Below, one piece after another: positions 18,939 through 56,199 of a stretch of 64,000 nucleotides of DNA. The translations under genes were made by a program, and so were the position numbers. How positions within the stretch are numbered: the stretch's first letter is position 1; each line of letters opens with the position of its first letter. The stretch is from an uncultured Acidobacteriota bacterium (GTDB lineage Bacteria > Acidobacteriota > Terriglobia > UBA7540), in the NCBI GenBank assembly GCA_963804995.1, contig CAWDSK010000005.1, positions 1,254,457 to 1,318,456 of the forward strand, written 5' to 3'. The notes beneath the pieces were generated by a model, which saw only the letters and a program-made list of their open reading frames with translations, was not told the DNA's origin and did no database searches.

Positions 18939-18968
18939 GCGCAGACCCTTGTTTTTGAGGGTCTGCGC
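18939..18968. repeat. REP-like hairpin GCGCAGACCC..GGGTCTGCGC
   Basis: 10-bp stem; same family as the intron target hairpin. Confidence 0.7.
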
Positions 18969-22828: not shown

Positions 22829-22905
22829 CCAAGAGCCGGCAGCTAACAGTTGGACGCTTTGGCTGTGAGCTGTCGGCTGTCAGCTTAAAATCACAAGGAG
22901 CGTAT

Positions 22906-26491: not shown

Positions 26492-26644
26492 TTTTGTTCA
26501 GGGTGCAAGACCCAGGTCTAAGAATTGTGCTTCCCGCCCCTCGGTGAGGAATGCGGAACGTAGACGCTCGCTTTTGTGGCGGGCGATGCGACCCCATGAC
26601 TGTTCCAGACAAGGCGCGGGAGCCAGGAGTTGAGGAGGTGTTTC

Positions 26645-29536: not shown

Positions 29537-29749
29537 TTGTTTTGGATTTTGGATTACGGCAGCGGGCTGCCCCCGCGCCGGGACCAAAACACTTCCGTGT
29601 CCTCTGTGCTTCTCAAGGTCTGACAGAGGGCGCACGGTTGGCTCAGCGACCTTTGTGTTAAGGTTTTTCCGAGCACATGAGGACACCGCGATGCTCTGTG
29701 CATTAATCCAAAATCGAAAATCAAAATCCAAAATGGATAGAGAGGTTTC

Positions 29750-31300: not shown

Positions 31301-31393
31301 AGAACGGTAGGCAGTAGGCACAAGGCAGTAGGCGCGAAGGGCCGTAGCCACGCATCGTTGTGAGCCTGCGAAGTTATTGAAAGGAGAAATCCA

Positions 31394-32533: not shown

Positions 32534-32616
32534 TGATGGTCGATTGACGATTGTCGATTGAAAAAAAGCAGGTGCAAATTCTTCGCTTGGCGCAGCATGA
32601 TAATAAAAGTCGCGAG

Positions 32617-33405: not shown

Positions 33406-33408
33406 TAC

Positions 33409-34078
33409 CTGAAAGTCAAAATTGCTCCTTCCATTCTCTCTGCGGATTTCACCCGGCTCGGTGAACAGGTGCGGATTGTCGAAGCGGCAGGTGTAGACCG
33501 CGTCCAGATCGATGTGATGGATGGCCGCTTCGTGCCCAACATCACCTTCGGACCCCTGGCGGTGCGCAGTCTGCGGCCGCTGACGCGTTTGACCCTCGAG
33601 GCGCACCTGATGGTCACTCCGCCGGAGGACTTCGTCGCGGCATTTGCGGAAGCGGGCGCCGACACGATCATCGTTCACCAGGAGTCCACCCCGCACCTGC
33701 ATCGCGTCATCGAGCAGATTCGGAGCTTGGGAAAGAAGGCGGGAGTGGCGCTGAATCCTTCTACGCCGGCTGGCACGCTTTCCGAAGTGCTCGAACATGG
33801 TGCAAATCATCCTGGTCATGACCGTCAACCCCGGCTTCGGCGGGCAGAAATTTATTCGCGCCACGCTGCCCAAAATCCGCCAGGTTCGGGATGCGCTTAC
33901 GGAGCGCGGCCTGGACTGCGAAGTGGAAGTGGACGGTGGCATCAACGAACAGACGATCCGCTGGGTGGCTGACGCCGGTTCGGATGTGATGGTGGCGGGC
34001 TCCTCAGTCTACGATGCGCCTGATGGTGTGGCGGCGGCCATAGCGCGCCTGATCGCCAGTGCGACGGCGGAGAATTAG
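33409..34078 (+). pseudogene. rpe: Ribulose-phosphate 3-epimerase, frameshifted near 33796 (real or sequencing error)
   Basis: [19 protein letters not shown], then [10 protein letters not shown] and VDGGI in a shifted frame. Confidence 0.88.
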
Positions 34079-36619: not shown

Positions 36620-37156
36620 ATGGCGGAAGAAAGTCACCAACGACTCCTGCACGAGCCCGTACTGGTACTCAACGCCACGTACGAACCCGTCAACGTCACG
36701 GCGGTGCGGCGCGCCATTGTGCTGGTTTTGAAGGGTGTCGCTACCACGGAGGAAGAGGACGGGCTGTTCGTTCACTCCTCACAGCTTGCGATCCGCGTGC
36801 CTTCGGTGATTCGCCTGGTGGAATTCCGGCGCATCCCTTACCAGACGCGGGCCCTTTCGCGCAAAAACGTCCTGCTGCGTGATCGTTATACCTGCCAGTT
36901 CTGCGGGCGCGTGATGCCCGCGCATGAGCTTACTCTCGATCACGTCATTCCGCGCTCGCGGGGCGGCCACACCGATTGGGACAACCTCGTCGCCTGCTGC
37001 CATCGCTGCAACAGTCTCAAAGGGGACCGGCTACCGGAAGAGTCCGGGCTGCGACTCTTGCGCCCACCGCGTCCCTTTACGCTGCACACCAGCCGGCAAA
37101 TCATGCGCATGATGGGCCGTTCCGATGAACGCTGGCGGAAATACCTGTTCTGCTGA
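36620..37156 (+). CDS. HNH endonuclease (McrA-like)
   Basis: [39 protein letters not shown]. Confidence 0.9.
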
Positions 37157-40254: not shown

Positions 40255-41310
40255 CTACTGCAACCTGGGACTTGTGGGGGAACCTGCCACGGTCGGGAGC
40301 TCGAAGATCTGTTTGAGCACCACCGATAAACGGCGCCGCCAGTGGATTCGGTCGCACGTGTAATAGAGGCTTGTTGGGCCGGCAAGCTGCGCGCCTATCG
40401 CAGCGTATGTTGTCGCTTTGTTGGGAAGATCGCAAACACGGACGGCTTCGAAGTTTGCCTCTGTCTTCATGGGGTCTGTTCCGGCACTCCATAGTTCAAC
40501 GTCGGGGAAGAAGGACCAATGGTGGATCGAATGTAGGAGATCCAACACCTTTGGGGGAAAGGCGGAAGGCAGTGAGCAGATAGGACCGGCTTCTCGGAGG
40601 GCACCCCTGGCTGTGATCACCAATCCCGATTTTGACAGCCTCGTGAAGCGGTGAAAAACGAACTTATTTGAGTGACCAGTGCAGAAAACGTCGTCAGGCC
40701 GCAAATGCATTGCTGCGTCGGGCAGTAGGAGTGTCTCCCACGATCGGAGATTTCTCTCGGCCAGGACATCTGGGAAGGAAGGATCAAATCGAGTCGCGGC
40801 CTCGGCTTCCTCAGCCCAACTTTTCAACTGCGAGAGCACGCCGGCGCCATTCGCTGCCCAAGCCCACCTCACTGGACGCTCTCGGGTCATTTCTCTCAGG
40901 ATGAAGCCGCATACTTCAAACCCATAGTGGGTGGCGCGTTTGTAGGTCTGACCCGTAAGGGAACTCACACAAGTTTCAAACCGGTTAGGGATGGGTTGAC
41001 CTAACTCATCCACGCACCAAAGCCTTGAAAGATAGGCGAAACGCGATACAAAACTGGACGCCGAGAAGTCGCCGGGAAAATCCCAAGGTATTTCAGATGG
41101 AAGGCGGATCGAGCCCCCTTCAACGGCTCCCAGTTTCTTCCGGCGGTTCTCCTGCAAGAAGAACGGCACATAGAGGCGGTAAAAAGATCGCGACGAGCTC
41201 TCTACTCTCGCGACCGGAACGACCCCTGGCGCGATATTCCGGTGTTCAAAATCGTCAAAATAATCCAACAGGAGAGCCCCAGGATCATAGACAGGCCTTC
41301 CCTCACCCAT
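40255..41310 (-). CDS. Hypothetical protein
   Basis: 351-aa ORF, no motif recognised. Confidence 0.5.
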   Translation of the reverse strand: MGEGRPVYDPGALLLDYFDDFEHRNIAPGVVPVARVESSSRSFYRLYVPFFLQENRRKKLGAVEGGSIRLPSEIPWDFPGDFSASSFVSRFAYLSRLWCVDELGQPIPNRFETCVSSLTGQTYKRATHYGFEVCGFILREMTRERPVRWAWAANGAGVLSQLKSWAEEAEAATRFDPSFPDVLAERNLRSWETLLLPDAAMHLRPDDVFCTGHSNKFVFHRFTRLSKSGLVITARGALREAGPICSLPSAFPPKVLDLLHSIHHWSFFPDVELWSAGTDPMKTEANFEAVRVCDLPNKATTYAAIGAQLAGPTSLYYTCDRIHWRRRLSVVLKQIFELPTVAGSPTSPRLQ

Positions 41311-41638: not shown

Positions 41639-42124
41639 ATATTTGTCGAATTGATGCCATTACTCGCCGGACGCACGGTGATGATCACCGTCGCCCGCGA
41701 GGACGAGAAAACGGTCCGGGTATGCGTAATCCCGAAGAAGGTGAAAGAGGACGATAACCCGGCGCTTACAACGCCGTTGAGTTACACCGGCACACCGGAG
41801 GAGCTCGACGCGGAACTGGGAAAACACTTGGCGAGCTACGTTGAGTGTCACACCCAACTGGGCAGCATGCTGGCTCAGGCCAAAGCTGAAATGGAGGCTG
41901 CGGCCAAAGCTGCCCAAGAGGAAGCCCGCAAGAAGACGGCGGAGCGCAACAAGAAAGCCGCCGAGAAGGCGCCGGTTTCCCTCAGCGGCAACTCCGCTGC
42001 TCCACAGCAAAGTTTAGAGGCTGCGGCCAAGATAAATACGCTCTTCGGAGACACCACCGCGCACGAACCCGCCGGTGCAAGCAAACCGACAGGAGGTGAA
42101 AGCCCATGCAGGCTAGCGTTATAA
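41639..42124 (+). CDS. PRTRC system protein E
   Basis: ALTTPLSYTGTPEELDAEL motif; AAGGAG RBS precedes ATA at 41639. Confidence 0.82.
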   Translation: MFVELMPLLAGRTVMITVAREDEKTVRVCVIPKKVKEDDNPALTTPLSYTGTPEELDAELGKHLASYVECHTQLGSMLAQAKAEMEAAAKAAQEEARKKTAERNKKAAEKAPVSLSGNSAAPQQSLEAAAKINTLFGDTTAHEPAGASKPTGGESPCRLAL

Positions 42125-42309
42125 GCCGTGAATTTACCTGGAATGGGGTTAAGATCCCGGACCCAGGGCGTCATCTCTCTCCGGAAGAAGTGCGCGCCGT
42201 GCTGGCGACGATGTACCCGGATATTGCCACGGCGACGATCACCGGGCCCGAAGCCGTCGGGGAAAAATTACTCTATCGTTTCGTCGCCGCAATCGGCACC
42301 AAAGGATAG
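42106..42309 (+). CDS. PRTRC system protein C (ubiquitin-like)
   Basis: REF..NG..PDP..SPEEVR..YPDI..A.I.GPE..GTKG terminus. Confidence 0.88.
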   Translation: MQASVISREFTWNGVKIPDPGRHLSPEEVRAVLATMYPDIATATITGPEAVGEKLLYRFVAAIGTKG

Positions 42310-42552
42310 GTGCCGATGAGAGCCGATCCGAAGGTACGAAAAGAGAAAGCAAAGCAGGCGGTCCTCAATGAACTCAATCGGCGTAGCGAGGACCGCCACC
42401 CCCGCAATCAAACCCTCCTCGCGAGGTTCGCCCGATGCACACACTTTCAGCAGACAGTCCTCGTCATATCACGAGCGGTCGACGCCGAACGGCGCGCTTA
42501 CAGCGCAACACCGCTTGCCCCCCCGCCCGGATGGCTGCCACCGCTTGCCTGA
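42310..42552 (+). CDS. Small hypothetical protein in the PRTRC cassette
   Basis: Abuts the protein C stop. Confidence 0.45.
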   Translation: MPMRADPKVRKEKAKQAVLNELNRRSEDRHPRNQTLLARFARCTHFQQTVLVISRAVDAERRAYSATPLAPPPGWLPPLA

Positions 42553-43562
42553 TGGGAAGCGGAGCCCATCTGCTTCTTCCAACCCTCGACTGCGTTCCAC
42601 TTGAGTATCATTTTCACGCCGGCGAGTGCGCCGCAATTCGCTTGGCACAGGCGCTACTTGAGCTCGATATCGCGGAGCCGAGCGACTGGCGACGTGTCCG
42701 CCGCGATCCAACCGACTATGTGCAGGCAACGCTCAACCGCTGGATTGATCTCCACGGCGGGAAGGCTCTTCGGCGGCGCTTCTGCCTGCTATTGATGCTG
42801 AGTGAGGTCGTGGACGAATATACGGACGCTGGCGACTCCGACCCGGATGGCCGGCGGCTTTACCTGTTTCTTCACCCGGACAGTGCCGCTTTTGTCGTAG
42901 CCGGACCGACACTCGAACTTATGGCGCAGGAGCACCCACGGTTGCCCGCAACCTTCTACCATCTGTTTACAGGGGCCCTTAACCGGTGGGTAAGGACCTA
43001 TGATTACCGTGACGCCGAAGATCGCGTCCAGATGCTGCGCGAATGGGCCGAGGGGGAAGAGGAACAATACGAGATCGCGGACGTGGCAGCATCAATGCCC
43101 GCATGCATGAAGCAGAAACTGCTTAGTTTGCGAGGTCTTCGCCGGATGGCTGCACAAGCCAGGGGAGAAGCGTCCAAGGCTCTAATTGCCGCCACGCTCG
43201 AACTCGAACGAACCTCTGCGTCGGTGCGGCGCCCGGAATTCACCGATGACATGCGCGAGCAGCTCATGGACACGAATTCACCGCTGCCTGCCGCTCTGGT
43301 TGTCTTCGCGGAGAATGATTCGATTGAGGCACAGTTTGAAGATGAATCGCAATCGTGGGGAGAGGCTGCTTCGGAGCCTAACTTGATCTTGCCTTTGAGC
43401 GCTTTTGACCTCAAGAGCATTCGGTCAGCGTTTCACACCCTGGCGGTTGTATGCCGGACCCTGGCAGCCGCCAGCCGGTTGATCGATCTCATGCCGGGAA
43501 ACGAGAAATGGGTTACAGACTCGGAGGAGGGCCATGGAAGCGCGAGTGGTAATCGGAGCTAG
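42435..43562 (+). CDS. PRTRC system protein F-like (start uncertain)
   Basis: Position between proteins C and B; HPRLPATFY motif. Confidence 0.6.
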   Translation: MHTLSADSPRHITSGRRRTARLQRNTACPPARMAATACLMGSGAHLLLPTLDCVPLEYHFHAGECAAIRLAQALLELDIAEPSDWRRVRRDPTDYVQATLNRWIDLHGGKALRRRFCLLLMLSEVVDEYTDAGDSDPDGRRLYLFLHPDSAAFVVAGPTLELMAQEHPRLPATFYHLFTGALNRWVRTYDYRDAEDRVQMLREWAEGEEEQYEIADVAASMPACMKQKLLSLRGLRRMAAQARGEASKALIAATLELERTSASVRRPEFTDDMREQLMDTNSPLPAALVVFAENDSIEAQFEDESQSWGEAASEPNLILPLSAFDLKSIRSAFHTLAVVCRTLAAASRLIDLMPGNEKWVTDSEEGHGSASGNRS

Positions 43563-44241
43563 CAGAACATTCGCCCTGAAGAATGCCGTTCTTCTGTACG
43601 GCGATGGTATGTCGATGTTCGCCACACTTCACGCCGTCATGATACGAGCGAAAAGTGGCGCCCCGCACCTTGGGCCTGGACAAGCACTGACAACAGCCTT
43701 CCTAAGGACTCTGGCCGAGGGGTTAGGAACCCGCATCACTGCGGAAATCTTTCCCGAGAACGTGTTGGCACGGACGCCAGAGACTATCACCTGGTGGACG
43801 CGGGCGAGGCGCGAGGTGATGTTCTTCGGCGGCGTCGACCTTGACGCGCGCGCATTGGACGGCGGCGCCTACCCGCACCCCGCGCTGGTCTTCAGGGTGA
43901 CACGCCGTGAACTCTTCGTGCGCGCTTTGGAGAGGGACGAGCGCCCCGCAGGAGAAACACCTCTGAAGACAGCTCCCTATTGGAATTGCGACGCTGCCGG
44001 CCGGGTTTGCCTCGGCTCGATGCGCGTGCCCAACGAGACAACGGTAGAGTCGATTAACGACTGGCAGGCCGGTTTCTTCCGGAGCCAATTCACACATGCG
44101 AACGGAGCGGTGCGCCTCACCAGTCACACGGGGGGATTCCTCGGACTGTGGAAGATCCTGAAGGGTAGCCAGGATCCTTTCCCCACCGAATTCCTGACTG
44201 ACGCGAAGGGGACGTTGCGACAGTTTGTCGAGCGGGAATGA
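43534..44241 (+). CDS. PRTRC system protein B (E2-like)
   Basis: PHPALVF, APYWN..GRVCLGS, FFRSQFTH. Confidence 0.85.
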   Translation: MEARVVIGASRTFALKNAVLLYGDGMSMFATLHAVMIRAKSGAPHLGPGQALTTAFLRTLAEGLGTRITAEIFPENVLARTPETITWWTRARREVMFFGGVDLDARALDGGAYPHPALVFRVTRRELFVRALERDERPAGETPLKTAPYWNCDAAGRVCLGSMRVPNETTVESINDWQAGFFRSQFTHANGAVRLTSHTGGFLGLWKILKGSQDPFPTEFLTDAKGTLRQFVERE

Positions 44242-44245
44242 CCTT

Positions 44246-45037
44246 ATGGAGACACACACGATTCACACGGAGTTGTTACGGCGGCGAGTACGCGTGTTAG
44301 TCGTCGGTTGCGGAGGCACCGGCAGCGCCGTGGTCGGCGGCTTGCCTTTCTTGCACCAAGCGCTGATCGCGTGGGGGCATCCCGAAGGCTTGCACGTGAC
44401 GGTTATGGACGGGGACGTGATTTCTCCCACCAACTGCGTGCGGCAGCCGTTCAGTCGTTGTGAAGTGGGAAATCTCAAAAGTGTCGTGCTCGTGAACCGG
44501 CTAAATTTGTTCTGGAATCTCGGGTGGGAGGCGGTGCCTGAGCACTTGGTCCGCAGGGAGCCGCTCGACCGGGTTGACGTTGTCATCGGGTGCGTGGATA
44601 CTCGCGCGGCCCGGGCGGTGATCCGGGAATGCACGACCCGCTGGAGTGCCACATCGTACTGGCTCGACATTGGTTCCACTGCCGACGCCGGGCAGTTCAT
44701 TCTGGGTGAGCCGTTGAACCAAGTGAACCGACGATGCAGAACTCGCCTGCGAACAGTCGCTGAGCTGTATCCTGAGACTGTGGATGGTAGCTTGGATGAT
44801 GACGAGTTGCCAAGCTGCAGCGCGATACAGGCCCTCGAAAGGCAGGGCCCGTTCGTCAATCAAGTCCTCGCCCAGCACGCTCTAGCGTTGCTGGCACGGC
44901 TCTTCCGATATGGGCACATCAGCTATCACGGTGGGTTCGTAAACTTACAGGAAGGCTGCGGCGCGAGGCTTGCGGTTGACCCTTTTCTGTGGACGCGGCT
45001 CAGGCGGCGTTGCAAACGTGAACGGAGCAGGACATGA
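44246..45037 (+). CDS. PRTRC system ThiF/E1 family protein
   Basis: VVGCGGTGS, DGD.IS..NCVRQ, GCVD, PSCS..AL..Q..FVN. Confidence 0.9.
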   Translation: METHTIHTELLRRRVRVLVVGCGGTGSAVVGGLPFLHQALIAWGHPEGLHVTVMDGDVISPTNCVRQPFSRCEVGNLKSVVLVNRLNLFWNLGWEAVPEHLVRREPLDRVDVVIGCVDTRAARAVIRECTTRWSATSYWLDIGSTADAGQFILGEPLNQVNRRCRTRLRTVAELYPETVDGSLDDDELPSCSAIQALERQGPFVNQVLAQHALALLARLFRYGHISYHGGFVNLQEGCGARLAVDPFLWTRLRRRCKRERSRT

Positions 45038-48121: not shown

Positions 48122-49669
48122 TCAGTTGCCGCCGGTTTCGAAGTCCATTGGTTCTTCGAGGCGAACTCTCAATTCCTTCAACCAAGTACGAGGGTTGGTG
48201 CCATGGGCGATGCGGCCCAGAAAGCGTAGTTTCCCGGCTATGTTGCAGCGGTTTTGCCGAATATCTTCCTTCGTGCCTGTAATGTAAACGGCGAGGAACT
48301 CCTCCATGGTTCGGGGCTTTGAAAAGAGATATGTAGCGTGGCCAAGCTGTGGCGTCTCTACGACCACACAATGCTCGAGCTCCAGGATGTACTCACTTCC
48401 AAAGAGATAAAGTCGCCGTGCTCGCTTGCAGAGCTCCTGGTAGAAGAAGGCATCGTAGTCCGGTTGCCAGTTAATCTGAGCGATGTCGAAGTTGCCGGGG
48501 ATGCCGAGGTTCCAACAGAGGCTGCGCAGTTGTCCCCTCTCCAACGGCTCGCGATCGATGCGGGCACGGACTTTGGCCAGGGCGTCGGAGAACTCACCGA
48601 AACGGTGGTAACTCTTCCGAGCGGTCTCAATTTGCTCAGCCATATCAGCCGGTAGCTTCACCTCGATGCGGCTCGGCAAGGCGGTTTCCCACTTAATCAG
48701 GTGCCACTCGCCACGCCGCTGGCGATACTTGCCCATTTGGACGAAGGTTCCCCGCAACTCGACCTTGGCGCCCATGAGATGTTTCCACTGGTTCCATGTA
48801 GCATCCCAAGCGATCGGCATGGCCGACTGGTCGAGTGTGACCTCAAGTTTCCTTCGGACATCGCGGTATATGGCGTGATCGTTGTGAAAGTCAAAATTGC
48901 GCAACGGCGCCCGGAAGCGGCGTTCCCGATGCTCGGGAGCGAAGGACAGGATTTGCGTGGCGAAGAACGTCTGCCCGTCCCGCGAGCGGTCTCCGGCGAC
49001 CAGAATCGAACCGAAGCCGCCATACGGGAAGAGCGCCGGTGACGAAGTGTCCTTCAGCAGCGAGTCATAACAAGCCCGTAACTCCGGCTGAGCCAGGATG
49101 TTGAAGGCTCGTTCCAAGGTGACACGATCAAGTTTGGAAGCACTGGATGCACGGAGTTCCAATTGGCGGAGATTGAAGGCAAGTCGCAGCTCAGCGGGCG
49201 ACGCAGACGCGCTGATCCGTAGAGTGTCATACAGGTTCGCTTGGCGCTCCCAGGCCTGGTGCCGTCTGGCGACATAGAAGTAATCGTGCACCACCTCGCA
49301 AGGCAGATGGATGGTGCCAATGCCCAGACGTCCCGCGGAAACCGCGGCCCGCACGTAGAGATGCTCTCGCTTGTCGGTCTTGGGCTGTGTGGCACAGCTG
49401 ATGGGAGCCTGGTAGAGATCGCGACTCCGAGTGGGGGACGAGGTCTTGTGAATGTAGAGTTCAGTCCCGGCGCCGGCGGAATTAATGGCCAGAGGGAATT
49501 CAATTTCGTCGCCGGGCCGGATATGTGCTCCCAGGAAGTTGGAGATGAGGATACTGCCGATATTGTTGAAGCAGCAGACAGTCTTGCCGCCCTCCTGCTT
49601 AAGCTCCGAGACAGAGCCACGGCGGATCGTCTCCGCCACTTCATTTGCCGATTGGGTGCTCGTCTCCAT
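48122..49669 (-). CDS. Hypothetical protein with a central J-domain-like segment
   Basis: NLYDTLRISASASPAELRLAF..AFNILAQPELRACYD, no HPD. Confidence 0.6.
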   Translation of the reverse strand: METSTQSANEVAETIRRGSVSELKQEGGKTVCCFNNIGSILISNFLGAHIRPGDEIEFPLAINSAGAGTELYIHKTSSPTRSRDLYQAPISCATQPKTDKREHLYVRAAVSAGRLGIGTIHLPCEVVHDYFYVARRHQAWERQANLYDTLRISASASPAELRLAFNLRQLELRASSASKLDRVTLERAFNILAQPELRACYDSLLKDTSSPALFPYGGFGSILVAGDRSRDGQTFFATQILSFAPEHRERRFRAPLRNFDFHNDHAIYRDVRRKLEVTLDQSAMPIAWDATWNQWKHLMGAKVELRGTFVQMGKYRQRRGEWHLIKWETALPSRIEVKLPADMAEQIETARKSYHRFGEFSDALAKVRARIDREPLERGQLRSLCWNLGIPGNFDIAQINWQPDYDAFFYQELCKRARRLYLFGSEYILELEHCVVVETPQLGHATYLFSKPRTMEEFLAVYITGTKEDIRQNRCNIAGKLRFLGRIAHGTNPRTWLKELRVRLEEPMDFETGGN

Positions 49670-50105
49670 ATGGAGTGCAGCATAGCCAGCCTGGGAGTCC
49701 GCGTCAAATGAGGTCTATTTGCTTCTAAGTTACACGTGCGTAACAAGATAATCGTGGACAAAATGGAAGGGGCGGACGCGGTGAACTTTTTTCCAGAGCA
49801 AACCAGCCGCCAGGCGTTGTGTCGTAAGGGGGAGTAACCCCTTGCTGTGGCACGATGGGTAAAGAATTACTGGAGAGGAATCCTACCAGCTATCAGGGGA
49901 CACAAGCAAAATTGCGGTAGACAATTCGGGATTTGCCTAAGGGCTTGAGCCAGAGGCAGGTCAAGAACTTCAATGGGAATCCGGCTGCCCGGCTATGTGA
50001 GTTCATAGACACTGCGGCGTTTTCTCGCGGCTAATGGTCGAGGACAGGCTCATCTACTGCGATTCTGCGCAGTTGCGGTTTTCCGGCGGGATCATAGTTT
50101 TTTCC

Positions 50106-50133
50106 TTGCATTCTTCCTGCGCCTGTAGTGTAA
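50106..50133 (+). promoter_or_regulatory. Probable sigma70 promoter of the tRNA operon
   Basis: TTGCAT ... TGTAAT, 12 nt upstream of the first tRNA. Confidence 0.6.
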
Positions 50134-50145
50134 TAGCTTGGTTGT

Positions 50146-50221
50146 GCCGACGTAGCCAAGCGTTCAAGGCACCTGCCCTGTAATCAGGAGATCGCTGGCT
50201 GAAAGCCAGTCGTCAGCTCCA
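50146..50221 (+). tRNA. tRNA-Thr(TGT)-like, atypical (C33, T-loop CTGAAAG)
   Basis: Acceptor GCCGACG/CGTCAGC, U73, CCA; loop CCTGTAA. Confidence 0.65.
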
Positions 50222-50230
50222 GAGTTGAAA

Positions 50231-50365
50231 ATGTTGAGATTCCCCAAACCCGGAACGACGTGCGACCGGCAAGGTAGGCCGTGCCGCATATTTGTGTGCG
50301 CCCATGGTCAGGTCGTCGATAACACCATCATGGCGACAAATCCAGGGCGCGGCGGGGGTGGGTAG
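50231..50365 (+). CDS. Putative attenuator leader peptide 1 (44 aa, ends PGRGGGG)
   Basis: MLRFPKPGTTCDRQGRPCRIFVCAHGQVVDNTIMATNPGRGGGG*, immediately before a terminator. Confidence 0.65.
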   Translation: MLRFPKPGTTCDRQGRPCRIFVCAHGQVVDNTIMATNPGRGGGG

Positions 50366-50394
50366 AATCCATAGCACAGTTCGGATTCCAAATC

Positions 50395-50422
50395 AGCCCG
50401 CCCAAAAAAGGCGGGCTTTTTT
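50395..50422 (+). terminator. Intrinsic terminator / attenuator 1
   Basis: AGCCCGCC-CAAAAAA-GGCGGGCT followed by a T run. Confidence 0.85.
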
Positions 50423-50424
50423 AT

Positions 50425-50435
50425 TGCTCTTTGAC
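50425..50435 (+). promoter_or_regulatory. boxA-like antitermination element
   Basis: TGCTCTTTGAC versus rrn consensus TGCTCTTTAAC. Confidence 0.65.
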
Positions 50436-50447
50436 GAACGTTCCTTT

Positions 50448-50523
50448 GCTGACGTAGCCAAGCGTTCAAGGCGCCTGCCCTGTAAGCAGGAGATCACTGG
50501 TTAAAATCCAGTCGTCAGCTCCA
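50448..50523 (+). tRNA. tRNA-Thr(TGT)-like, atypical (C33, T-loop TTAAAAT)
   Basis: GCTGACG/CGTCAGC; CCTGC-CCTGTAA-GCAGG; TCCA end. Confidence 0.72.
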
Positions 50524-50532
50524 GAGTTGAAA

Positions 50533-50667
50533 ATGTTGAGATTCCCCAAACCCGAAACGATGCGCGAACGGCAAGGTAGGCCGTACGGCATATTTGTGTG
50601 CGCCCATGGTCAGGTCGTCGATAACACCATCATGGCGACAAATCCAGGGCGCGGCGGGGGAGGATAG
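50533..50667 (+). CDS. Putative attenuator leader peptide 2 (44 aa)
   Basis: MLRFPKPETMRERQGRPYGIFVCAHGQVVDNTIMATNPGRGGGG*. Confidence 0.65.
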   Translation: MLRFPKPETMRERQGRPYGIFVCAHGQVVDNTIMATNPGRGGGG

Positions 50668-50690
50668 AATCCAGAGCACAATCGGATTCT

Positions 50691-50722
50691 AAAAAAGCCC
50701 GCCCTAAAAAGCGGGCTTTTTT
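50691..50722 (+). terminator. Intrinsic terminator / attenuator 2
   Basis: AAAAAAGCCCGC-loop-GCGGGCTTTTTT. Confidence 0.85.
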
Positions 50723-50724
50723 AT

Positions 50725-50736
50725 TGCTCTTTGACA
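50725..50736 (+). promoter_or_regulatory. boxA-like antitermination element
   Basis: TGCTCTTTGACA. Confidence 0.68.
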
Positions 50737-50756
50737 ACTGAAAGACCCAGCAGCAC

Positions 50757-50830
50757 AGGAGCATGGCGTAGTGGCAGCGCGGCGGTCTCCAAAACCGCAG
50801 GCGTGGGTCCGATTCCTACTGCTCCTGCCA
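50757..50830 (+). tRNA. tRNA-Trp(CCA)
   Basis: GCGGT-CT-CCA-AA-ACCGC; ends GCCA. Confidence 0.85.
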
Positions 50831-50831
50831 G

Positions 50832-50905
50832 GGCGCGTTAGCCAAGTGGAAAGGCATCTGCCTGCAAAGCAGACAACCTCGGTTCGATTCCGAGCCGCGC
50901 CTCCA
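50832..50905 (+). tRNA. tRNA-Cys(GCA)
   Basis: TCTGC-CT-GCA-AA-GCAGA; U73, CCA. Confidence 0.9.
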
Positions 50906-50906
50906 G

Positions 50907-51000
50907 GGTGGTCAGCACTGGTGTGCGGGCGGGCCCTATAAGCCTGTAATTGCCCCGGATCAGGGTGCACGGCAGAGTTCGATTCTCTGGACCACTACCA
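50907..51000 (+). tRNA. Atypical 94-nt tRNA, anticodon TAT (Ile codon AUA), long variable arm
   Basis: Acceptor GGTGGTC/GACCACT-A-CCA; D arm GCAC-TGGT-GTGC; GCGGGC-CCTATAA-GCCTGT; T arm CAGAG-TTCGATT-CTCTG. Confidence 0.75.
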
Positions 51001-51002
51001 TG

Positions 51003-51081
51003 GGGCTCGTAGCTCAGCCTGGAGTAGAGCGTCTCGCTACGAACGAGAAGGTCGCAGGTTCAAATCCTGTCGAGCCCTCCA
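51003..51081 (+). tRNA. tRNA-Arg(ACG)
   Basis: TCTCG-CT-ACG-AA-CGAGA. Confidence 0.92.
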
Positions 51082-51090
51082 TGTTTTTTC

Positions 51091-51169
51091 GGGCGCGTGC
51101 GGCCAAGCGGATCGGCCACCAGCCTCCTAGGCTGGCGATATGTGAGTTCGAATCTCACCGCGCCTTCCA
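51091..51169 (+). tRNA. tRNA-Arg(CCT)
   Basis: CCAGC-CT-CCT-AG-GCTGG; irregular D arm. Confidence 0.75.
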
Positions 51170-51170
51170 T

Positions 51171-51244
51171 GCCGGGCTCATCTAACGGCAAGATGTGCGC
51201 CCGATTAGCGCAACATCGAGGTTCAAGTCCTCGGCCCGGTACCA
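51171..51244 (+). tRNA. tRNA-Ile(GAT), atypical loop (C33, U37)
   Basis: TGCGC-CC-GAT-TA-GCGCA; ends ACCA. Confidence 0.78.
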
Positions 51245-51245
51245 C

Positions 51246-51319
51246 TCCTGGGTGGTTCAACGGTAGAACGCGCGGCTGTTAACCGCGAAATGGGGGTTCG
51301 ACTCCCTCCCCAGGAGCCA
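51246..51319 (+). tRNA. tRNA-Asn(GTT)
   Basis: CGCGG-CT-GTT-AA-CCGCG. Confidence 0.92.
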
Positions 51320-51325
51320 TATTGC

Positions 51326-51401
51326 GGGGCCAAGATGTTATTGGCGGCATACCCGCCTTTTAAGCGGAGAAGTCCGGGTTCGAATCCCGGTGGCCCCACC
51401 A
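51326..51401 (+). tRNA. tRNA-Lys(TTT)
   Basis: CCCGC-CT-TTT-AA-GCGGA. Confidence 0.85.
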
Positions 51402-51402
51402 T

Positions 51403-51476
51403 GCTGCGATAGCTCAGTGGCAGAGCCGCTGATTCGTAACCAGCAGACCGGAGTTCGATTCTCCGTCGCAGCTCCA
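51403..51476 (+). tRNA. tRNA-Thr(CGT)
   Basis: GCTGA-TT-CGT-AA-CCAGC. Confidence 0.88.
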
Positions 51477-51477
51477 C

Positions 51478-51553
51478 GGTGACTGAACCCAAACGGTGCG
51501 GGACCTGACTGTGGATCAGGTGTTAGCGGGTTCGACTCCCGTCAGTCACCCCA
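51478..51553 (+). tRNA. tRNA-His(GTG)
   Basis: G-1/C73; CCTGA-CT-GTG-GA-TCAGG. Confidence 0.88.
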
Positions 51554-51559
51554 AGATTC

Positions 51560-51633
51560 GGCCCTGTAGCGCAGACGAGCGCGGCTTCCTCCGAAGGAGC
51601 AGGTCATCGGTTCAAATCCGATCAGGGCCTCCA
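51560..51633 (+). tRNA. tRNA-Arg(CCG)
   Basis: GCTTC-CT-CCG-AA-GGAGC. Confidence 0.85.
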
Positions 51634-51707
51634 GCCGGCGTAGCTCAGTGGCAGAGCGCGTCCCCGGTACGGACGAAACCCGCGTTCGATTCGCGGCGCC
51701 GGCTCCA
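51634..51707 (+). tRNA. tRNA-Thr(GGT), C33
   Basis: CGTCC-CC-GGT-AC-GGACG. Confidence 0.82.
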
Positions 51708-51708
51708 T

Positions 51709-51784
51709 GCGGGCGGAATTCGAGCGGCAGAATACCCGACTCTTACTCGGCGAAGTGCGAGTTCAAGTCTCGCCGCCCGCACCA
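51709..51784 (+). tRNA. tRNA-Lys(CTT)
   Basis: CCGA-CT-CTT-AC-TCGG. Confidence 0.82.
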
Positions 51785-51790
51785 GGATTT

Positions 51791-51866
51791 GCCCCGTTAG
51801 CTCAGATGGTAGAGCGCCGGTCCTACAAACCGGAAGTCGGAGACTCGAACCCTCCACGGGGTACCA
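51791..51866 (+). tRNA. tRNA-Val(TAC), C33
   Basis: CCGGT-CC-TAC-AA-ACCGG. Confidence 0.8.
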
Positions 51867-51871
51867 GATTT

Positions 51872-51947
51872 GGGGGCGTCGTCTAATTGGGAGGACTCCA
51901 GTCCTGCAAACTGGCAACGAGGGATCGATTCCCCTCCGCCTCCACCA
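51872..51947 (+). tRNA. tRNA-Ala(TGC), C33
   Basis: G3:U70 pair; CCAGT-CC-TGC-AA-ACTGG. Confidence 0.8.
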
Positions 51948-51954
51948 AATTTGG

Positions 51955-52028
51955 GCGGTCATGGTTCAGTGGCAGAATCCGACATTGCCAGTGTCGGGGC
52001 GCGGGTTCGATTCCCGCTGACCGCTCCA
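51955..52028 (+). tRNA. tRNA-Gly(GCC)
   Basis: CGACA-TT-GCC-AG-TGTCG. Confidence 0.9.
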
Positions 52029-52029
52029 C

Positions 52030-52103
52030 GCGGCGTTGGTATATGGGGTGTGCCTCGGCCTTCCAAGCCGAAGAAGCGGATTCGATTTCCGCACGCCGCT
52101 CCA
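52030..52103 (+). tRNA. tRNA-Gly(TCC)
   Basis: TCGGC-CT-TCC-AA-GCCGA. Confidence 0.87.
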
Positions 52104-52109
52104 GATGTT

Positions 52110-52184
52110 CGGGATGTGGGGTAACGGGAGACCACCTGTCTTGGGGACAGGGCGGTGGAGGTTCAAATCCTCCCATCCCGACCA
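52110..52184 (+). tRNA. tRNA-Pro(TGG)
   Basis: C1; CCTGT-CT-TGG-GG-ACAGG. Confidence 0.87.
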
Positions 52185-52190
52185 GGTTGA

Positions 52191-52266
52191 CGGGAAGTGG
52201 CCTAGTGCTCAAGGCGCCGGTTTCGGGTGCCGGAGATCGCGGGTTGAAATCCCGCCTTCCCGACCA
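52191..52266 (+). tRNA. tRNA-Pro(CGG)
   Basis: CCGGT-TT-CGG-GT-GCCGG. Confidence 0.85.
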
Positions 52267-52272
52267 GATTAT

Positions 52273-52350
52273 TGCGGGCGAGTGGAACGGACAACCACGC
52301 GAGCCTCATAAGCTCGAAGATAACGGGTTCGACTCCCGTGCCCGCTACCA
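52273..52350 (+). tRNA. tRNA-Met(CAT), initiator-like (U1:U72 mismatch)
   Basis: CGAGC-CT-CAT-AA-GCTCG. Confidence 0.8.
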
Positions 52351-52355
52351 AGTTT

Positions 52356-52427
52356 GTCCTCATCGTCTAGCGGCCAGGATGCTTGGTTCTCAGCCAAGTG
52401 ACGCGGGTTCGAGTCCCGCTGGGGATG
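52356..52427 (+). tRNA. tRNA-Glu(CTC), CCA not encoded
   Basis: CTTGG-TT-CTC-AG-CCAAG. Confidence 0.88.
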
Positions 52428-52428
52428 C

Positions 52429-52505
52429 GGGGGCGTGGAGGAGTGGGAGTCCTCGCGGCACTGTCAATGCCGAGAACGCCGGTTCAAGTCCGGTCGTCCC
52501 CGCCA
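52429..52505 (+). tRNA. tRNA-Asp(GTC)
   Basis: CGGCA-CT-GTC-AA-TGCCG; G73. Confidence 0.9.
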
Positions 52506-52513
52506 AGTTTTGT

Positions 52514-52587
52514 GGCCTGTTCGTCTATCGGAAGGATGGCTGATTTTCAATCAGTCGAGGCGGGTTCGACTCCCGCACAGGCTACCA
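52514..52587 (+). tRNA. tRNA-Glu(TTC)
   Basis: GCTGA-TT-TTC-AA-TCAGT. Confidence 0.88.
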
Positions 52588-52597
52588 AAGGAGCGCT

Positions 52598-53800
52598 ATG
52601 CAAATCATCGACAACATTCCGGTGTGGGGAACCCAGGTTGACGAAGGTGCCTTGAAGCAAATCCGCACCTGCTACTGGATCTTCGGGCAGGCCGCGATGA
52701 TGGCCGATCACCACAAGGGCTACGGTGTTCCGATCGGCGGCGTCATTGCGCACGAATACTTAATCAGCCCCTCTGGTGTCGGTTATGACATCGGCTGCGG
52801 CAACAAAGCAGTGCTGACGGATGCCGACGCACACGACGTGCGTGCCAACATCGCCCGCATCATGGATGATGTTTGGTCAACGGTCAGCTTCGGGATCGGG
52901 CGCAAGAACCGCGAGGACGTTGACCACGAACTTTTCGAGAACGACGACGCTTGGCAGATTACCCAAGGGGCCAACAGCGCAGCATGGAAACTCACATCGC
53001 TGCGGGATATGGCTCGTGCTCAGCTTGGTACAGTTGGAAGTGGGAACCACTACGTGGACATTCTGCAGGACGAGCAGGAGCGAATTTGGGTTGGGGTTCA
53101 TTTTGGCTCCCGTGGTTTTGGCCACAAGATCGCCACGCGGTTTTTGAATCGAGCCGGCGCGAAGGACGATATGGACTCGGCTCCCGTTGCGCTTGATGCT
53201 CGAACTCAGGAAGGGCAGGACTATATCGCCGCGATGAAGCTGGCTGGCCGGTATGCCTACGCTGGCCGTGATTGGGTGTGCGATCGAGTGGTGAAAATTC
53301 TTGGCGCAAAGGCACTCGACTCAGTTCACAACCATCACAATTTTGCGTGGCAGGAGACGCACGGCGGAAAGTCGCTCTGGGTCGTTCGCAAAGGTGCAAC
53401 GCCAGCATTTCCTGGTCAGCGCGGATTTGTCGGCGGCACGATGGGCGAAAACTCCGTGATTCTGGAAGGCGTCGAGAACGACGATGCTTCACTGTCTCTC
53501 TACTCAACGATCCACGGTGCCGGTCGCGTCATGGGCCGGATGGAGGCCAAGGGCAAGCGGGACAAGGCAACCGGTGAGTGGAAGCGCCAGCCGAAGGTTA
53601 CCCAGGAGATGATGGACACCTGGGTGGGTGAAGCCAAGGTTGAACTGCGCGGTGGCGGAGTTGACGAATCGCCGCACTGCTATAAGCGATTACCGGAAGT
53701 CCTGGCCGAGCACTCCGCGTCGGTGCGAGTCCTGCACACGCTCAAGCCGCTCGGTGTTGCGATGGCTGGAAAAAACGAGTTCGATCCATTCAAAGACTGA
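52598..53800 (+). CDS. rtcB: RtcB RNA 2',3'-cyclic phosphate/5'-OH ligase
   Basis: GVGYDIGCG, QLGTVGSGNHY, HFGSRG, HNHHN, HGAGR, DESP..YK; AAGGAG RBS. Confidence 0.95.
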   Translation: MQIIDNIPVWGTQVDEGALKQIRTCYWIFGQAAMMADHHKGYGVPIGGVIAHEYLISPSGVGYDIGCGNKAVLTDADAHDVRANIARIMDDVWSTVSFGIGRKNREDVDHELFENDDAWQITQGANSAAWKLTSLRDMARAQLGTVGSGNHYVDILQDEQERIWVGVHFGSRGFGHKIATRFLNRAGAKDDMDSAPVALDARTQEGQDYIAAMKLAGRYAYAGRDWVCDRVVKILGAKALDSVHNHHNFAWQETHGGKSLWVVRKGATPAFPGQRGFVGGTMGENSVILEGVENDDASLSLYSTIHGAGRVMGRMEAKGKRDKATGEWKRQPKVTQEMMDTWVGEAKVELRGGGVDESPHCYKRLPEVLAEHSASVRVLHTLKPLGVAMAGKNEFDPFKD

Positions 53801-53876
53801 GGGAGCGTCGTCCAATCGCATAGGGCACCCGCCTTCTAAGCGGTGAATCCGGGTTGAAGTCCCGGCGCTCCTCCCA
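53801..53876 (+). tRNA. tRNA-Arg(TCT)
   Basis: CCGC-CT-TCT-AA-GCGG; begins directly after the rtcB stop. Confidence 0.8.
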
Positions 53877-53893
53877 AGCCTCGAAGAGGTTTT

Positions 53894-54436
53894 ATGTCCG
53901 ACACTCTCGTTCTCAACACGCTGGGTTTCCCGGTGGGCTTTGTCTCCTGGCAGCGGGCTATCAATTTGCAATGGCAGGACCGCGCCGTGGTGGTCACGGA
54001 AGATGCGAAGCGCATCCTCCGCTCGCCGTCCTTCGAGATGGGGATGCCACGCGTCATCAAGCTGAGGAACCATATCAGCCGGAAGCTGCGGCTGAAGGTT
54101 CCGATGTCTCGCCGTAACATCGCGATCCGCGATAACAGCTCGTGCCAGTACTGCGGCGTGGTGCTGGAAACGGCGGAGTACACCATTGACCACGTTCTGC
54201 CCAGGGCTCGCGGCGGAAGTTCGGTCTGGACGAATCTTGCGCTTGCTTGTGTCCAGTGTAACAAGCGCAAATCGGATCGAACTCCTCAAGAGGCTGGACT
54301 TACGCTCAGGCAGAAGCCTCTGGAGCCTAACCAGTTCGACCCGAGATTCAATTTCCGGCTGCACATCCACGCGTTGCGGCCGGAATGGTCGGACTACAAG
54401 GCTTACATTTATTGGAACGTCGAGCTTGAAAAGTAG
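53894..54436 (+). CDS. HNH endonuclease (McrA-like) within the tRNA array
   Basis: TLVLN, RDNSSCQYCG, TIDHVLPRARGG..WTNLALACVQCN. Confidence 0.9.
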   Translation: MSDTLVLNTLGFPVGFVSWQRAINLQWQDRAVVVTEDAKRILRSPSFEMGMPRVIKLRNHISRKLRLKVPMSRRNIAIRDNSSCQYCGVVLETAEYTIDHVLPRARGGSSVWTNLALACVQCNKRKSDRTPQEAGLTLRQKPLEPNQFDPRFNFRLHIHALRPEWSDYKAYIYWNVELEK

Positions 54437-54438
54437 TT

Positions 54439-54514
54439 CCCCGGTGAGCAAGCGCGGTCGTTGCAATGGTCTGAAAAGCCATAGAGTCCCGTTCGACTCG
54501 GGGACCGGGGACCA
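54439..54514 (+). tRNA. tRNA-Phe(GAA)
   Basis: ATGGT-CT-GAA-AA-GCCAT. Confidence 0.82.
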
Positions 54515-54519
54515 ACCAC

Positions 54520-54593
54520 TCTGGCCTCGTCTAATGGTAGGACGGCTGACTTTGAATCAGCTAATCTTGGTTCGATTCCAGGGGCCAGAGCCA
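54520..54593 (+). tRNA. tRNA-Gln(TTG)
   Basis: GCTGA-CT-TTG-AA-TCAGC. Confidence 0.92.
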
Positions 54594-54594
54594 C

Positions 54595-54669
54595 TGCGAG
54601 ATCGTTTAATGGGTAGGACTCCAGATTCTGAATCTGGCAATGCTTGTTCGAATCAAGCTCTCGCAACCA
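54595..54669 (+). tRNA. tRNA-Gln(CTG)
   Basis: CCAGA-TT-CTG-AA-TCTGG. Confidence 0.9.
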
Positions 54670-55098
54670 GGAAACCAGGAATCCGGAAGGAAACCGGGAA
54701 ACCGGGGGCGTTTACGAGAGTGCCTGGCCCCGGCATCAGAACATAACCGCCGAGCAGAAACCCCAGCCGCTACCGGGAAGCCTTCAAAACGTCGATCAGC
54801 AGCGCGTCCTCTGATTCATGGAATCGCTTGATCTTGGGGCGAAGGTTCACGCAGACGAAGAAAATGCAGTCGGTAACACGCAGCCGATGAACGTTGGACA
54901 CGCCGGCAGGTTAACACCACGTCCCCGTACCTTCAAGGAAGAACCCACGCAGAAAAGCGCTGACCGTGAAGTTACGAGCTCTACGACGCTTGTTTCAGGG
55001 CATCAAGAATCGGCAGAATCGCGCCCCAGTATTGGAACAGATCCTGCCCTCCGGTTTTTGTCACGGGATGCTCGCTCCTCTGCTTGCGGGGGCGGCGG

Positions 55099-56199
55099 TT
55101 ACTTTCCCGACCGCAGGATTTTCTCCACCGTGGGCTTCAGATCAGGAAGCATGGGCCCCTCCAGCCCATGAGAGAATGCTGTATGGAATGCCCGCGACTT
55201 CGCTTTAATGGTCGCGTACCGCCGGTACACTCGCTCCTCGAAGGGTAGGTTGCCATCTTCCACTTCCTCTTCTTGCTGCCAGGTGTCGAAGATGGATTGC
55301 TCGTCGAGCTCTGGCAACGACTCAAACCATTCAAGCTGAGAAAGCGGCGGATCTCGCTTCTGGTAGTGTGAGCGGAGGGTATTAATCTCGTCTGGGCCCA
55401 GCGCTTTCCGAAGCGGGAGGAAGTTGGATTGGTCAAAGAGCACCCCGACAGGTGGGCTGAATCCAAATTTCCGATGCAGCGCCACAGGAAAGAGGGAAAT
55501 CGGGCTGTTGTTCACTGCAACGTCGAGGATGGCCCGAACAGTAGGATGGACCAGGCTTACCCAATACCGAGTCTGAGGCCCATTTGGCACGTTTAGATTC
55601 GTTCCGCGTATTGCGGTGACAGCCTCCTTGATCAGCGGCTTGTGTGAGTATGAACATAGCCGTCTGTAAATATTCTCGAAATCCCTCTTCTTTATCGCGA
55701 CGCCCGGCACTTCAAGGGCACGAAAGATTTCGTTAATCACGCCCCTGAATGGTGGCGAATCCTTTTTCCCATCGAGCCACGAATAGAGCCGTTCATAGTC
55801 TTCCTCAAAGCGTAGCTTCTCCTTCCACCAGTAGTGAAAGGTGACTAGCTCCAGAGCAGAACGAAGGGCCGCAAAAGAAGCGTGGAGACAACCGTTGAGC
55901 CCCGCAAGAATTGCCTCGCGGAGCACAGCTATGCTCTCGAAGAAGAGGTAGTTTTTTTGGGTGAACCTCCCGCGCACTGGCAGGCGAACATCTTGGAGGT
56001 CTTGGAATTCTAGGATTGCCTGGCAACTCCACACCGTGTTTTTCCACTCGCGCTCCTCAGGGAAGCCCGCGGAGCCCAATAACCGACACGCGTGGTCCCC
56101 AACCTCGGAAAGTTCGTGGCGCTCGATTCCCCAAACGTCACGCATCGCGAGCTCGCCCACGGGCTCCCGAAATGTCCGTGCCAATACATGAATTTCCAT
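55099..56199 (-). CDS. Hypothetical protein (possible HEPN-like R..LE / Y..LCSYSH motifs)
   Basis: 366-aa ORF; ALRSALEL..IYRRLCSYSH. Confidence 0.55.
   Translation of the reverse strand: MEIHVLARTFREPVGELAMRDVWGIERHELSEVGDHACRLLGSAGFPEEREWKNTVWSCQAILEFQDLQDVRLPVRGRFTQKNYLFFESIAVLREAILAGLNGCLHASFAALRSALELVTFHYWWKEKLRFEEDYERLYSWLDGKKDSPPFRGVINEIFRALEVPGVAIKKRDFENIYRRLCSYSHKPLIKEAVTAIRGTNLNVPNGPQTRYWVSLVHPTVRAILDVAVNNSPISLFPVALHRKFGFSPPVGVLFDQSNFLPLRKALGPDEINTLRSHYQKRDPPLSQLEWFESLPELDEQSIFDTWQQEEEVEDGNLPFEERVYRRYATIKAKSRAFHTAFSHGLEGPMLPDLKPTVEKILRSGK

Follow-up and report, generated by a model that had tools for sequence, protein, structure and literature searches.

The term tRNA array denotes at least 20 tRNA genes at a density of at least 2/kb (PMC4758250; this and the other papers named here are cited from the available part of their text). 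Among these, the L-arrays are the closest described systems to the locus discussed here. In the Anabaena L-array, rtcB and a gene for an HNH endonuclease neighbor the tRNA genes, and induction occurs jointly in translation stress via promoter repeats (PMC8421152), with TrcR as the repressor of the trn operon (PMC10272220). The TrcR-controlled promoter is characterized by 9-nt direct repeats across its -10 box and start site. The reason mobile elements carry large, seemingly silent tRNA arrays is a long-standing question, and a switch that can be read makes this question testable. The window analyzed here is a 64,000-nucleotide stretch of an uncultured Acidobacteriota bacterium (Terriglobia; UBA7540; GCA_963804995.1, contig CAWDSK010000005.1, positions 1,254,457 to 1,318,456), in which 29 tRNA genes, rtcB and an HNH gene occupy positions 50146-54669 of the + strand. 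Like the trn operon of Anabaena PCC 7120, this array comprises at least 20 co-oriented tRNA genes, is patchily distributed, has mostly redundant anticodons and carries HNH and rtcB neighbors. Because the Anabaena L-array already has this combination (PMC8421152), the combination itself is not new, and an array with rtcB and HNH alone would be ordinary. The difference lies in control, which in Anabaena acts at initiation through promoter repeats and TrcR (PMC8421152; PMC10272220) and here apparently acts through translated leaders and terminators, one set per module. We estimate a probability of about 80% that two ribosome-dependent transcription attenuators in series gate the spare tRNAs, RtcB and HNH of the window, as modeled below. 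The array is of a known kind; its control, if as proposed, would be a variant of leader-peptide attenuation. By analogy with the Anabaena L-array, induction under translation stress would be expected.

The first 610 nt of the array consist of two copies of one unit of approximately 300 nt, 93% identical over 234 nt. Each unit runs in the order tRNA-Thr(UGU), 9 nt, a 44-codon open reading frame (ORF), a short hairpin, an intrinsic terminator and a boxA-like motif (Table 1). The ORF stops lie 30 and 29 nt before the terminator stems, the attenuator layout of a short ORF followed by a terminator. The two leader-terminator stretches, at 50231-50422 and 50533-50722, are not mentioned in the earlier note. 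Tandem units recur in the related copies G008, G031, G351 and L107, and L279 has a single unit; in G031 and G351 the second tRNA-Thr is deleted and the second ORF and terminator are retained. The leader frame is open in 11 of 11 copies from six loci (44 codons in ten, 42 in one), the other two frames being interrupted by stops in every copy, and CCA at leader codon 38 is invariant. Upstream, the relatives share an identical -35 element with the window and have TAAACT, TAGCAT, TAGATT or TAGAAT as -10 element. In this leader family, tRNA-Thr(UGU), often degenerate, separates the promoter from the leader, whose ATG follows the tRNA gene after 8-9 nt; processing of this tRNA may create the leader 5' end. 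In other families, the leader begins nearly at the site where transcription starts.

The codons of these leaders are fitted to the genes downstream. In each window leader, codons 2-38 include strictly cognate partners for 22 of the 28 array anticodons, whereas 20,000 random 37-codon windows from 2541 long host ORFs, which may include some shadow frames, average 13.3 and never exceed 21. Both leaders contain the rare codons AGA, AGG, ATA, ACA and CCA, and their Leu/Ser/Tyr codons number just 1 and 2 where 6.9 would be expected (P 0.004, 0.02), the array itself having no anticodon for Leu, Ser or Tyr. Strictly cognate codons for Trp, Glu(CUC), Lys(CUU), Val(UAC) and Ala(UGC) are lacking in both; the leaders do contain GTG and GCG, readable by wobble by Val(UAC) and Ala(UGC). 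With the amino acids fixed, isoacceptor coverage exceeds that of host-usage recoding (P 0.003, 0.018). The regulatory codons expected of an attenuator are present, spread over isoacceptors with no single-residue run.

Computed folds of the leader RNA provide the second element of an attenuator, an antiterminator that cannot coexist with the terminator and that a ribosome at the end of the ORF would cover. In transcripts truncated at the terminator loop, 33 of 43 units have the 5' arm of the terminator paired with upstream sequence, and in 30 of these the partner falls within -25 to +12 relative to the stop; masking a ribosome footprint at the stop lowers the paired arms from 33 to 3. The nascent arm pairs with the stop region in 16 of 19 hand-picked representatives and in 4 of 28 ordinary host terminators at equal stop distance (Mann-Whitney P 5e-7, kin treated as independent). 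The families use unrelated sequences for this pairing. For the window units, the stop-region pairing is 0.99 and 0.92, and 1/60 and 3/60 shuffles, respectively, are as high. When a ribosome footprint is walked along unit 1, the antiterminator is kept for A-site codons 1-38 with one dip at codon 14; in unit 2 it is full to codon 36 and partial to 38; and in both units pairing disappears once the A site reaches codon 39-40. This switch point at codon 39 coincides with the boundary between the codon-diverse part of the leader and its Gly-rich end. With no ribosome, the nascent arm of the window units stays paired (0.93, 0.83), and the full-length equilibrium favors the terminator.

Such folds suggest how the switch would operate. 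The last codons of the leader would pair with the terminator 5' arm before the 3' arm is transcribed. In normal decoding, the ribosome would trail the polymerase past codon 39 and cover the antiterminator strand, the terminator would fold and transcription would end. A ribosome delayed at any of codons 1-38, or never loaded, would leave the antiterminator in place, and the polymerase would read through. Two units in series would impose the termination condition twice, with less leak, and Nus factors loaded at the boxA after terminator 2 would let the polymerase cross approximately 4 kb of mostly untranslated RNA. The output would be 27 tRNAs, which we infer are charged, together with rtcB and HNH, and would refill and repair the same tRNA species whose scarcity opened the switch, closing a negative feedback loop. 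Candidate triggers are tRNA cleavage, amino-acid starvation and ribosome-stalling drugs, and such a leader would respond equally to starvation or to these drugs. Protection from tRNases is plausible, and the shielding from ribotoxins or abortive defenses put forward in the earlier note is compatible with anticodon loops unlike those of the host in 18 of the 27 comparable array genes. The earlier note had described an inducible translation-rescue cassette; the codon-matched leaders and the fit to the Anabaena L-array strengthen that idea, whereas the trio of array, rtcB and HNH on which it drew was already known and rtcB proves optional.

The proposed hand-over to Nus factors draws on the 16-mer GCTCTTTGACAACTGA after terminator 2, which has exactly two sites in the 7.55-Mb assembly, the other lying 228 nt upstream of 16S (5' primer site). 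The boxA label is our assumption, prompted by the match to the host 16S leader, its consensus not being confirmed in the available text of PMC4807359. That text does describe BoxA as binding NusB/NusE for rRNA antitermination (PMC4807359). Across 46 array loci, the core of the motif is found 23 times on the sense strand and 3 times on the antisense strand. Two further boxA-like sites in the host assembly (G000), at C9:216696 and C9:288408, are each upstream of non-tRNA leaders. By eye, the leader at C9:288408 presumably resembles a cobalamin riboswitch.

The same arrangement recurs in other arrays. A survey of 290 loci gave 46 with at least five tRNAs, or 40 after six repeating longer loci were skipped. 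These 40 arrays hold 49 terminators no more than 500 nt from a downstream tRNA, 46 of them with an ATG-initiated ORF ending 20-36 nt before the stem, a raw count that includes one false unit (L021:6860), one wrong frame (L027) and four identical phage copies. When leaders were picked by position only, 38 of 45 exceeded random windows at P<0.05 (modules with at least four anticodons); the tested leaders form 14 peptide clusters at the threshold used, of which several Ser/Leu-rich ones may share ancestry. In nine arrays of two or three modules, a swap test found that 22 of 22 leaders favor the exclusive amino acids of their own module above expectation, 14 at P<0.05, with 274 own-only against 85 other-only codons (last seven codons dropped, two starts set from promoter position, L028 left out). 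Leader content tracks the module in individual cases as well: Asp and Glu appear in L154, Cys in L191, and both Cys and Trp in L040 as well as L186; the Leu/Ser/Tyr leader includes codons for Gln in L022, with Gln tRNAs downstream, and none in L279, with no Gln tRNAs downstream; and the leader of L053, where two modules are fused, holds codons of both. G031 has, between Phe and Gln, a Tyr/Leu/Ser module equipped with a separate leader and terminator; module and leader are both absent from the window, a loss also common to G351 and G008. Leaders start within approximately 12 nt of a sigma70-like -10 box in 19 of 42 cases, against 20 of 3942 random host ATGs, and 11 leaders of the window type are not close to one because tRNA-Thr intervenes. 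On a viral contig, L212:1505-1567 is a 20-codon leader with 18 amino acids, ahead of an array of approximately 30 tRNAs, with terminator and antiterminator.

We consider it fairly probable, if less so than the reading of the window itself, that mobile tRNA arrays embody a general and evolvable feedback on tRNA supply. The leader of each module would test its own isoacceptors and be rewritten as tRNA genes move; the two sensors of the window would hand over to Nus antitermination; and the level of each tRNA species, including its loss to anticodon nucleases, would be answered by replacement and RtcB repair. The signal could instead be generic, the leader sensing translation coupling as such (antibiotics, ribosome damage, (p)ppGpp) with a secondary codon match and no tRNA-specific message. 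This alternative overlaps the proposed attenuation and differs only in the nature of the signal. It draws on the 16-18 of 20 amino acids spanned by the window leader, on the modeled opening of the switch by a stall anywhere in codons 1-38 and without any ribosome, on the induction of the Anabaena array by ribosome-targeting drugs (PMC8421152) and on the uORFs of vmlR and toiL, which sense drug stalls (PMC9226507; PMC12121999). Leaders specific to a module (Leu/Ser/Tyr versus the rest) that co-vary with its content are hard to explain in this way, and we regard a purely generic sensor as unlikely.

Several observations weigh against attenuation by translated leaders. The open leader frame has a chance probability of 0.26 and is thus weak by itself; the synonymous excess among leader copies is small (0.35 versus 0.24; 18 versus 33 variants; P 0.047); the window leaders have no clear Shine-Dalgarno sequence; the window -10 (TGTAAT) is a poorer match than those of the relatives; and, with amino acids fixed, coverage does not differ significantly from uniform recoding (0.06, 0.15). 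At full-length equilibrium without a ribosome, the terminator wins in both window units with P 0.99, so that the switch must be kinetic here; the corresponding terminator probability is 0.00-0.31 in the G008, G031, L107 and L279 copies, where the antiterminator mostly wins, and 0.50 and 0.95 in G351. The family with Trp/Ile/Lys/Arg modules is often without clear stop-region pairing (L154:5258, 0.05). Within the survey, 7 of the 45 leaders do not pass the random-window test, blind selection yielded the false unit and the wrong frame named above, 8 of the 22 leaders of the swap test were selected by eye, and the counts overstate independence because the relatives are kin. Codon-matched leaders without an intrinsic terminator occur at L040:3993-4150 and 7390-7479 and before the first modules of L186 (4893-4979) and L108 (27-113); in these the first tRNA is approximately 5-30 nt downstream, and they are possibly Rho-dependent or degraded switches. 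By the survey rule, no leader-terminator unit was found in the L288 array (Acidiphilium), nor in the small phage tRNA clusters L239, L265 and L284.

Some of these points would suit fixed, leaky terminators or structured leader RNAs that silence a foreign array, the ORFs being untranslated and induction being left to a protein regulator similar to Anabaena TrcR. The equilibrium preference of the window terminators, the weak Shine-Dalgarno sequence and weak dN/dS-type signal, and the cryptic, promoter-controlled nature of published L-arrays (PMC8421152; PMC10272220) all fit this account. Yet untranslated RNA would have no reason for a one-frame match to downstream anticodons in many unrelated leaders, nor for ORFs that end 20-36 nt before the stem or start right after the promoter, and this explanation is very unlikely.

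Together, ARAGORN and Rfam place the 29 tRNA genes on one strand within 4.52 kb, 24 of the 28 spacers being 0-9 nt, which bears out the one-strand, tightly spaced array of the earlier note; its embedded rtcB and HNH genes and its tRNA-Arg beginning at the base after the rtcB stop are likewise borne out, by Pfam matches and by the start of Arg(UCU) at 53801. At its default threshold ARAGORN called 26 of the 29. tRNA-Thr(UGU) copy 1 (50146) and tRNA-Ala(UGC) (51872) score 41.6 and 47.2 bits against Rfam RF00005, and tRNA-Ile(UAU) at 50907 was recovered by ARAGORN with a lowered threshold. This last gene (50907-51000) has a tiny D loop and a long variable arm; Ile(UAU) genes of 92-94 nt recur in several arrays, with 78-81 nt in others, and the tRNA would read AUA without lysidine. 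CCA is encoded in 28 of the 29 genes. Of the 28 distinct anticodons, 26 are also represented in the rest of the assembly, which has 46 further tRNA genes, only Ile(UAU) and Pro(UGG) being confined to the array, and array and host tRNAs of the same anticodon have a mean identity of 66% (25 pairs). With 29 genes in 4.52 kb, the array falls within the published definition of an array unit (PMC4758250), and it has the marks of an L-array: a single orientation, close non-periodic spacing, supernumerary isodecoders rather than new anticodons (26 of 28 outside the array), and a patchy distribution with foreign origin (PMC8421152).

Position 33 is C instead of U in 7 of the 29 array tRNAs, which also weighs against the proposed gating, since parts of the window copy may be decaying. 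The mechanism could then be real in the family and the window copy a decaying passenger, spread by a homing-type HNH and of little use to the host. The lost Leu/Ser/Tyr module, the degenerate first tRNA-Thr, C33 in seven genes and the poor -10 box point in this direction, as do the interrupted copies in G008 and G021 and the HNH-driven spread proposed for L-arrays (PMC8421152). However, the two leaders, the two terminators, boxA, rtcB and HNH have all stayed intact, CCA is kept in 28 of 29 genes, the same module is lost in G351 and G008, and the only intact tRNA-Pro(UGG) found in the assembly sits in the array, so the passenger account is highly improbable. The housekeeping tRNA-Pro(UGG), outside the window at G000:C4:198873-198918, ends after nucleotide 46 and is intact in 10 of 10 relatives of the genus; a degenerate copy lies at C3:891364-891430, leaving the array gene at 52110 as the sole intact one found. 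The truncation may be an insertion or an assembly gap, the assembly being 92% complete.

Table 1. Features of the tRNA array and its head (window positions)
Feature	Position	Strand	Remarks
sigma70-like promoter	50106..50134	+	-35 TTGCAT, 17 nt, -10 TGTAAT; likeness to relatives begins here
tRNA-Thr(UGU) copy 1	50146..50221	+	degenerate (T loop altered, mismatch in anticodon stem); precedes both terminators; Rfam 41.6 bits, below ARAGORN default
Leader ORF 1	50231..50365	+	44 codons; codons 2-38 array-cognate; Gly-rich last codons form the predicted antiterminator strand
GAATCC/GGATTC hairpin	50365..50388	+	between stop codon and terminator 1; inside predicted antiterminator helix; both arms kept in 6 aligned copies
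Intrinsic terminator 1	50396..50422	+	hairpin -14.1 kcal/mol, T run
boxA-like core	50426..50435	+	3' of terminator 1
tRNA-Thr(UGU) copy 2	50448..50523	+	opens unit 2; ARAGORN, Rfam
Leader ORF 2	50533..50667	+	44 codons; 18 amino acids; 34 distinct codons
Intrinsic terminator 2	50697..50722	+	hairpin -11.3 kcal/mol, T run
boxA-like antitermination signal	50726..50741	+	16 nt identical to host 16S rRNA leader
23 tRNA genes	50757..52587	+	Trp Cys Ile(UAU) Arg Arg Ile Asn Lys Thr His Arg Thr Lys Val Ala Gly Gly Pro Pro Met Glu Asp Glu; ARAGORN, Rfam
rtcB ribosome-binding site	52588	+	AAGGAG; directly 3' of tRNA-Glu
rtcB RNA ligase	52598..53800	+	400 aa; PF01139, E 7.8e-71, 240 bits
tRNA-Arg(UCU)	53801..53876	+	abuts rtcB stop; ARAGORN
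HNH endonuclease	53894..54436	+	180 aa; PF01844/PF14279
tRNA-Phe, Gln(UUG), Gln(CUG)	54439..54669	+	ARAGORN

The RtcB of the window aligns with the solved chains 4dwr and 1uc2, retaining the metal-binding and guanylylation motifs, centered on Asp, Cys, Asn-His, His, His, Lys, His-Gly-Ala-Gly-Arg and Glu, and the Lys of the last motif is replaced by Met. The assignment of which of these residues are catalytic is our own assumption. Its named nearest relatives belong to Terriglobia and other Acidobacteriota, which makes an acidobacterial host probable. At least five tRNAs accompany this type of RtcB in 10 of 80 genome loci and 11 of 80 metagenome loci. L279, on a viral contig, has the same array and leader type with no rtcB, and from this distribution rtcB appears to be optional cargo of the array. 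A second HNH gene, at 36620-37156 of the window, has 39% identity to the array HNH over 140 aa.

Nearly identical copies of rtcB are present in 6 of the 61 genomes searched, the host included, and in 4 of 401 genomes of the class. Nine related loci resemble the window in DNA sequence only over approximately 50085-54676, apart from one 66% match to the nearby helicase gene. The likeness stops at the promoter (approximately 50085-50100) and at the last Gln gene (approximately 54670), and the flanks are not shared. These borders mark the cassette as a discrete unit that appears to have moved horizontally. No att pair was found, a duplication of tRNA-Gly(CCC) being only the shared 3' end of another Gly gene, and array GC is near the 58% of the genome. 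The island of the earlier note is only partly borne out: patchy rtcB, sharp similarity borders and mobile-type neighbors speak for it, and it gains nothing from a GC anomaly or an att pair. A DNA search of 401 genomes of the phylum with the first 804 nt of the array gave only single-tRNA matches outside the host assembly, and an HNH-led plasmid search (106 records) found an array, among the five examined, only in L288 (Acidiphilium). Array copies in G008 and G021 are interrupted.

The array lies among IS66/IS21, type I restriction-modification (R-M) and group II intron reverse transcriptase genes, PRTRC genes and a SNF2-like helicase gene. PRTRC system genes E, B and ThiF, typical of mobile regions, occupy 41651-45037, near ssb at 39485. 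Two long ORFs with an alike overlapping-frame pattern and no Pfam match (7861-9600 and 14079-15749) lie on either side of type I hsdR and are probably a duplicated insertion element with one copy inside the R-M operon. A pentose-phosphate gene cluster extends over 16624-33972, with the group II intron reverse transcriptase at 19530-20966. Long ORFs at 48122-49669, 55099-56199, 40255-41310 and 42435-43562, two of which flank the cassette, have no Pfam, NCBIfam or PADLOC match. For 15 flanking proteins, PADLOC reported no full defense system, only weak HNH and E1 domain matches.

Of 19 RNA runs listed, none contained half of the query words. For four runs compared at 85% likeness, contigs of relatives from peat and soil metatranscriptomes (four studies) cover parts of 50148-54670. 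Their summed depth in the three leader bins versus downstream is 159-360 versus at most 31 in X1, 169-321 versus at most 46 in X2 and 7-43 versus at most 11 in X3, and is not higher in X5. We do not count these depths as support: parts cannot be ranked by contig depth, the leader is present twice and the uncovered flanks are unshared anyway. A stock promoter scan of the window did not detect the array promoter.

An Rfam scan ruled out a known ncRNA, T-box or Rfam leader as the identity of the units: the amino-acid leaders (Thr, Leu, Trp) stayed below the gathering score, the best being Thr_leader with 35 against 55 bits over the terminator part only, and the T-box covariance model had no match at E<=1 in 49600-55200. 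T-box riboswitches, which also link tRNA charging to antitermination, bind one uncharged tRNA directly (PMC2494555), whereas the window, with no T-box match in that interval, would sense many tRNAs via the ribosome. Phage tRNAs that counter anticodon nucleases (PMC10264068) are alike in being foreign and having non-host anticodon loops, as in 18 of 27 array genes; the available text of that paper has no mention of leaders, attenuation or rtcB. Similarly, "attenuat" and "leader" do not occur in the available parts of PMC8421152, PMC10272220 and PMC4758250, and a full-text literature search, with subscription journals mostly uncovered, yielded no report of tRNA genes controlled by leader peptides. 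In B. subtilis vmlR and E. coli toiL-topAI, a stall anywhere in a short ORF turns on a response gene, as proposed here; unlike the window units, both gate protein genes and sense drugs, with no codon match to a tRNA set described in the available texts (PMC9226507; PMC12121999).

Since the leader names which shortages open the array, one reporter can tell tRNA cleavage, starvation and drug stalling apart as the selective trigger. If the proposed attenuation is correct, it would extend leader-peptide control from amino-acid genes to tRNA genes, provide an all-RNA alternative to the TrcR repressor and offer synthetic biology a compact multi-codon sensor of translation stress. Leader-peptide attenuators are classically those of amino-acid operons, including trpL, hisL, thrL, ilvL and pheM. 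The window units have in common with these a short ORF, codons fitted to the downstream genes and an antiterminator/terminator choice that the ribosome would set (PMC2965389). They differ in that their targets are tRNA genes rather than biosynthesis or synthetase genes, and that the leader has approximately one codon per isoacceptor and no run of one amino acid. The protector (1:2) hairpin of the trp and his attenuators is not evident in the window units, so that here the absence of translation should mean ON. Finally, unlike the attenuators of amino-acid operons, the window has two units in series, with a tRNA gene before the leader and a boxA-like signal after it.

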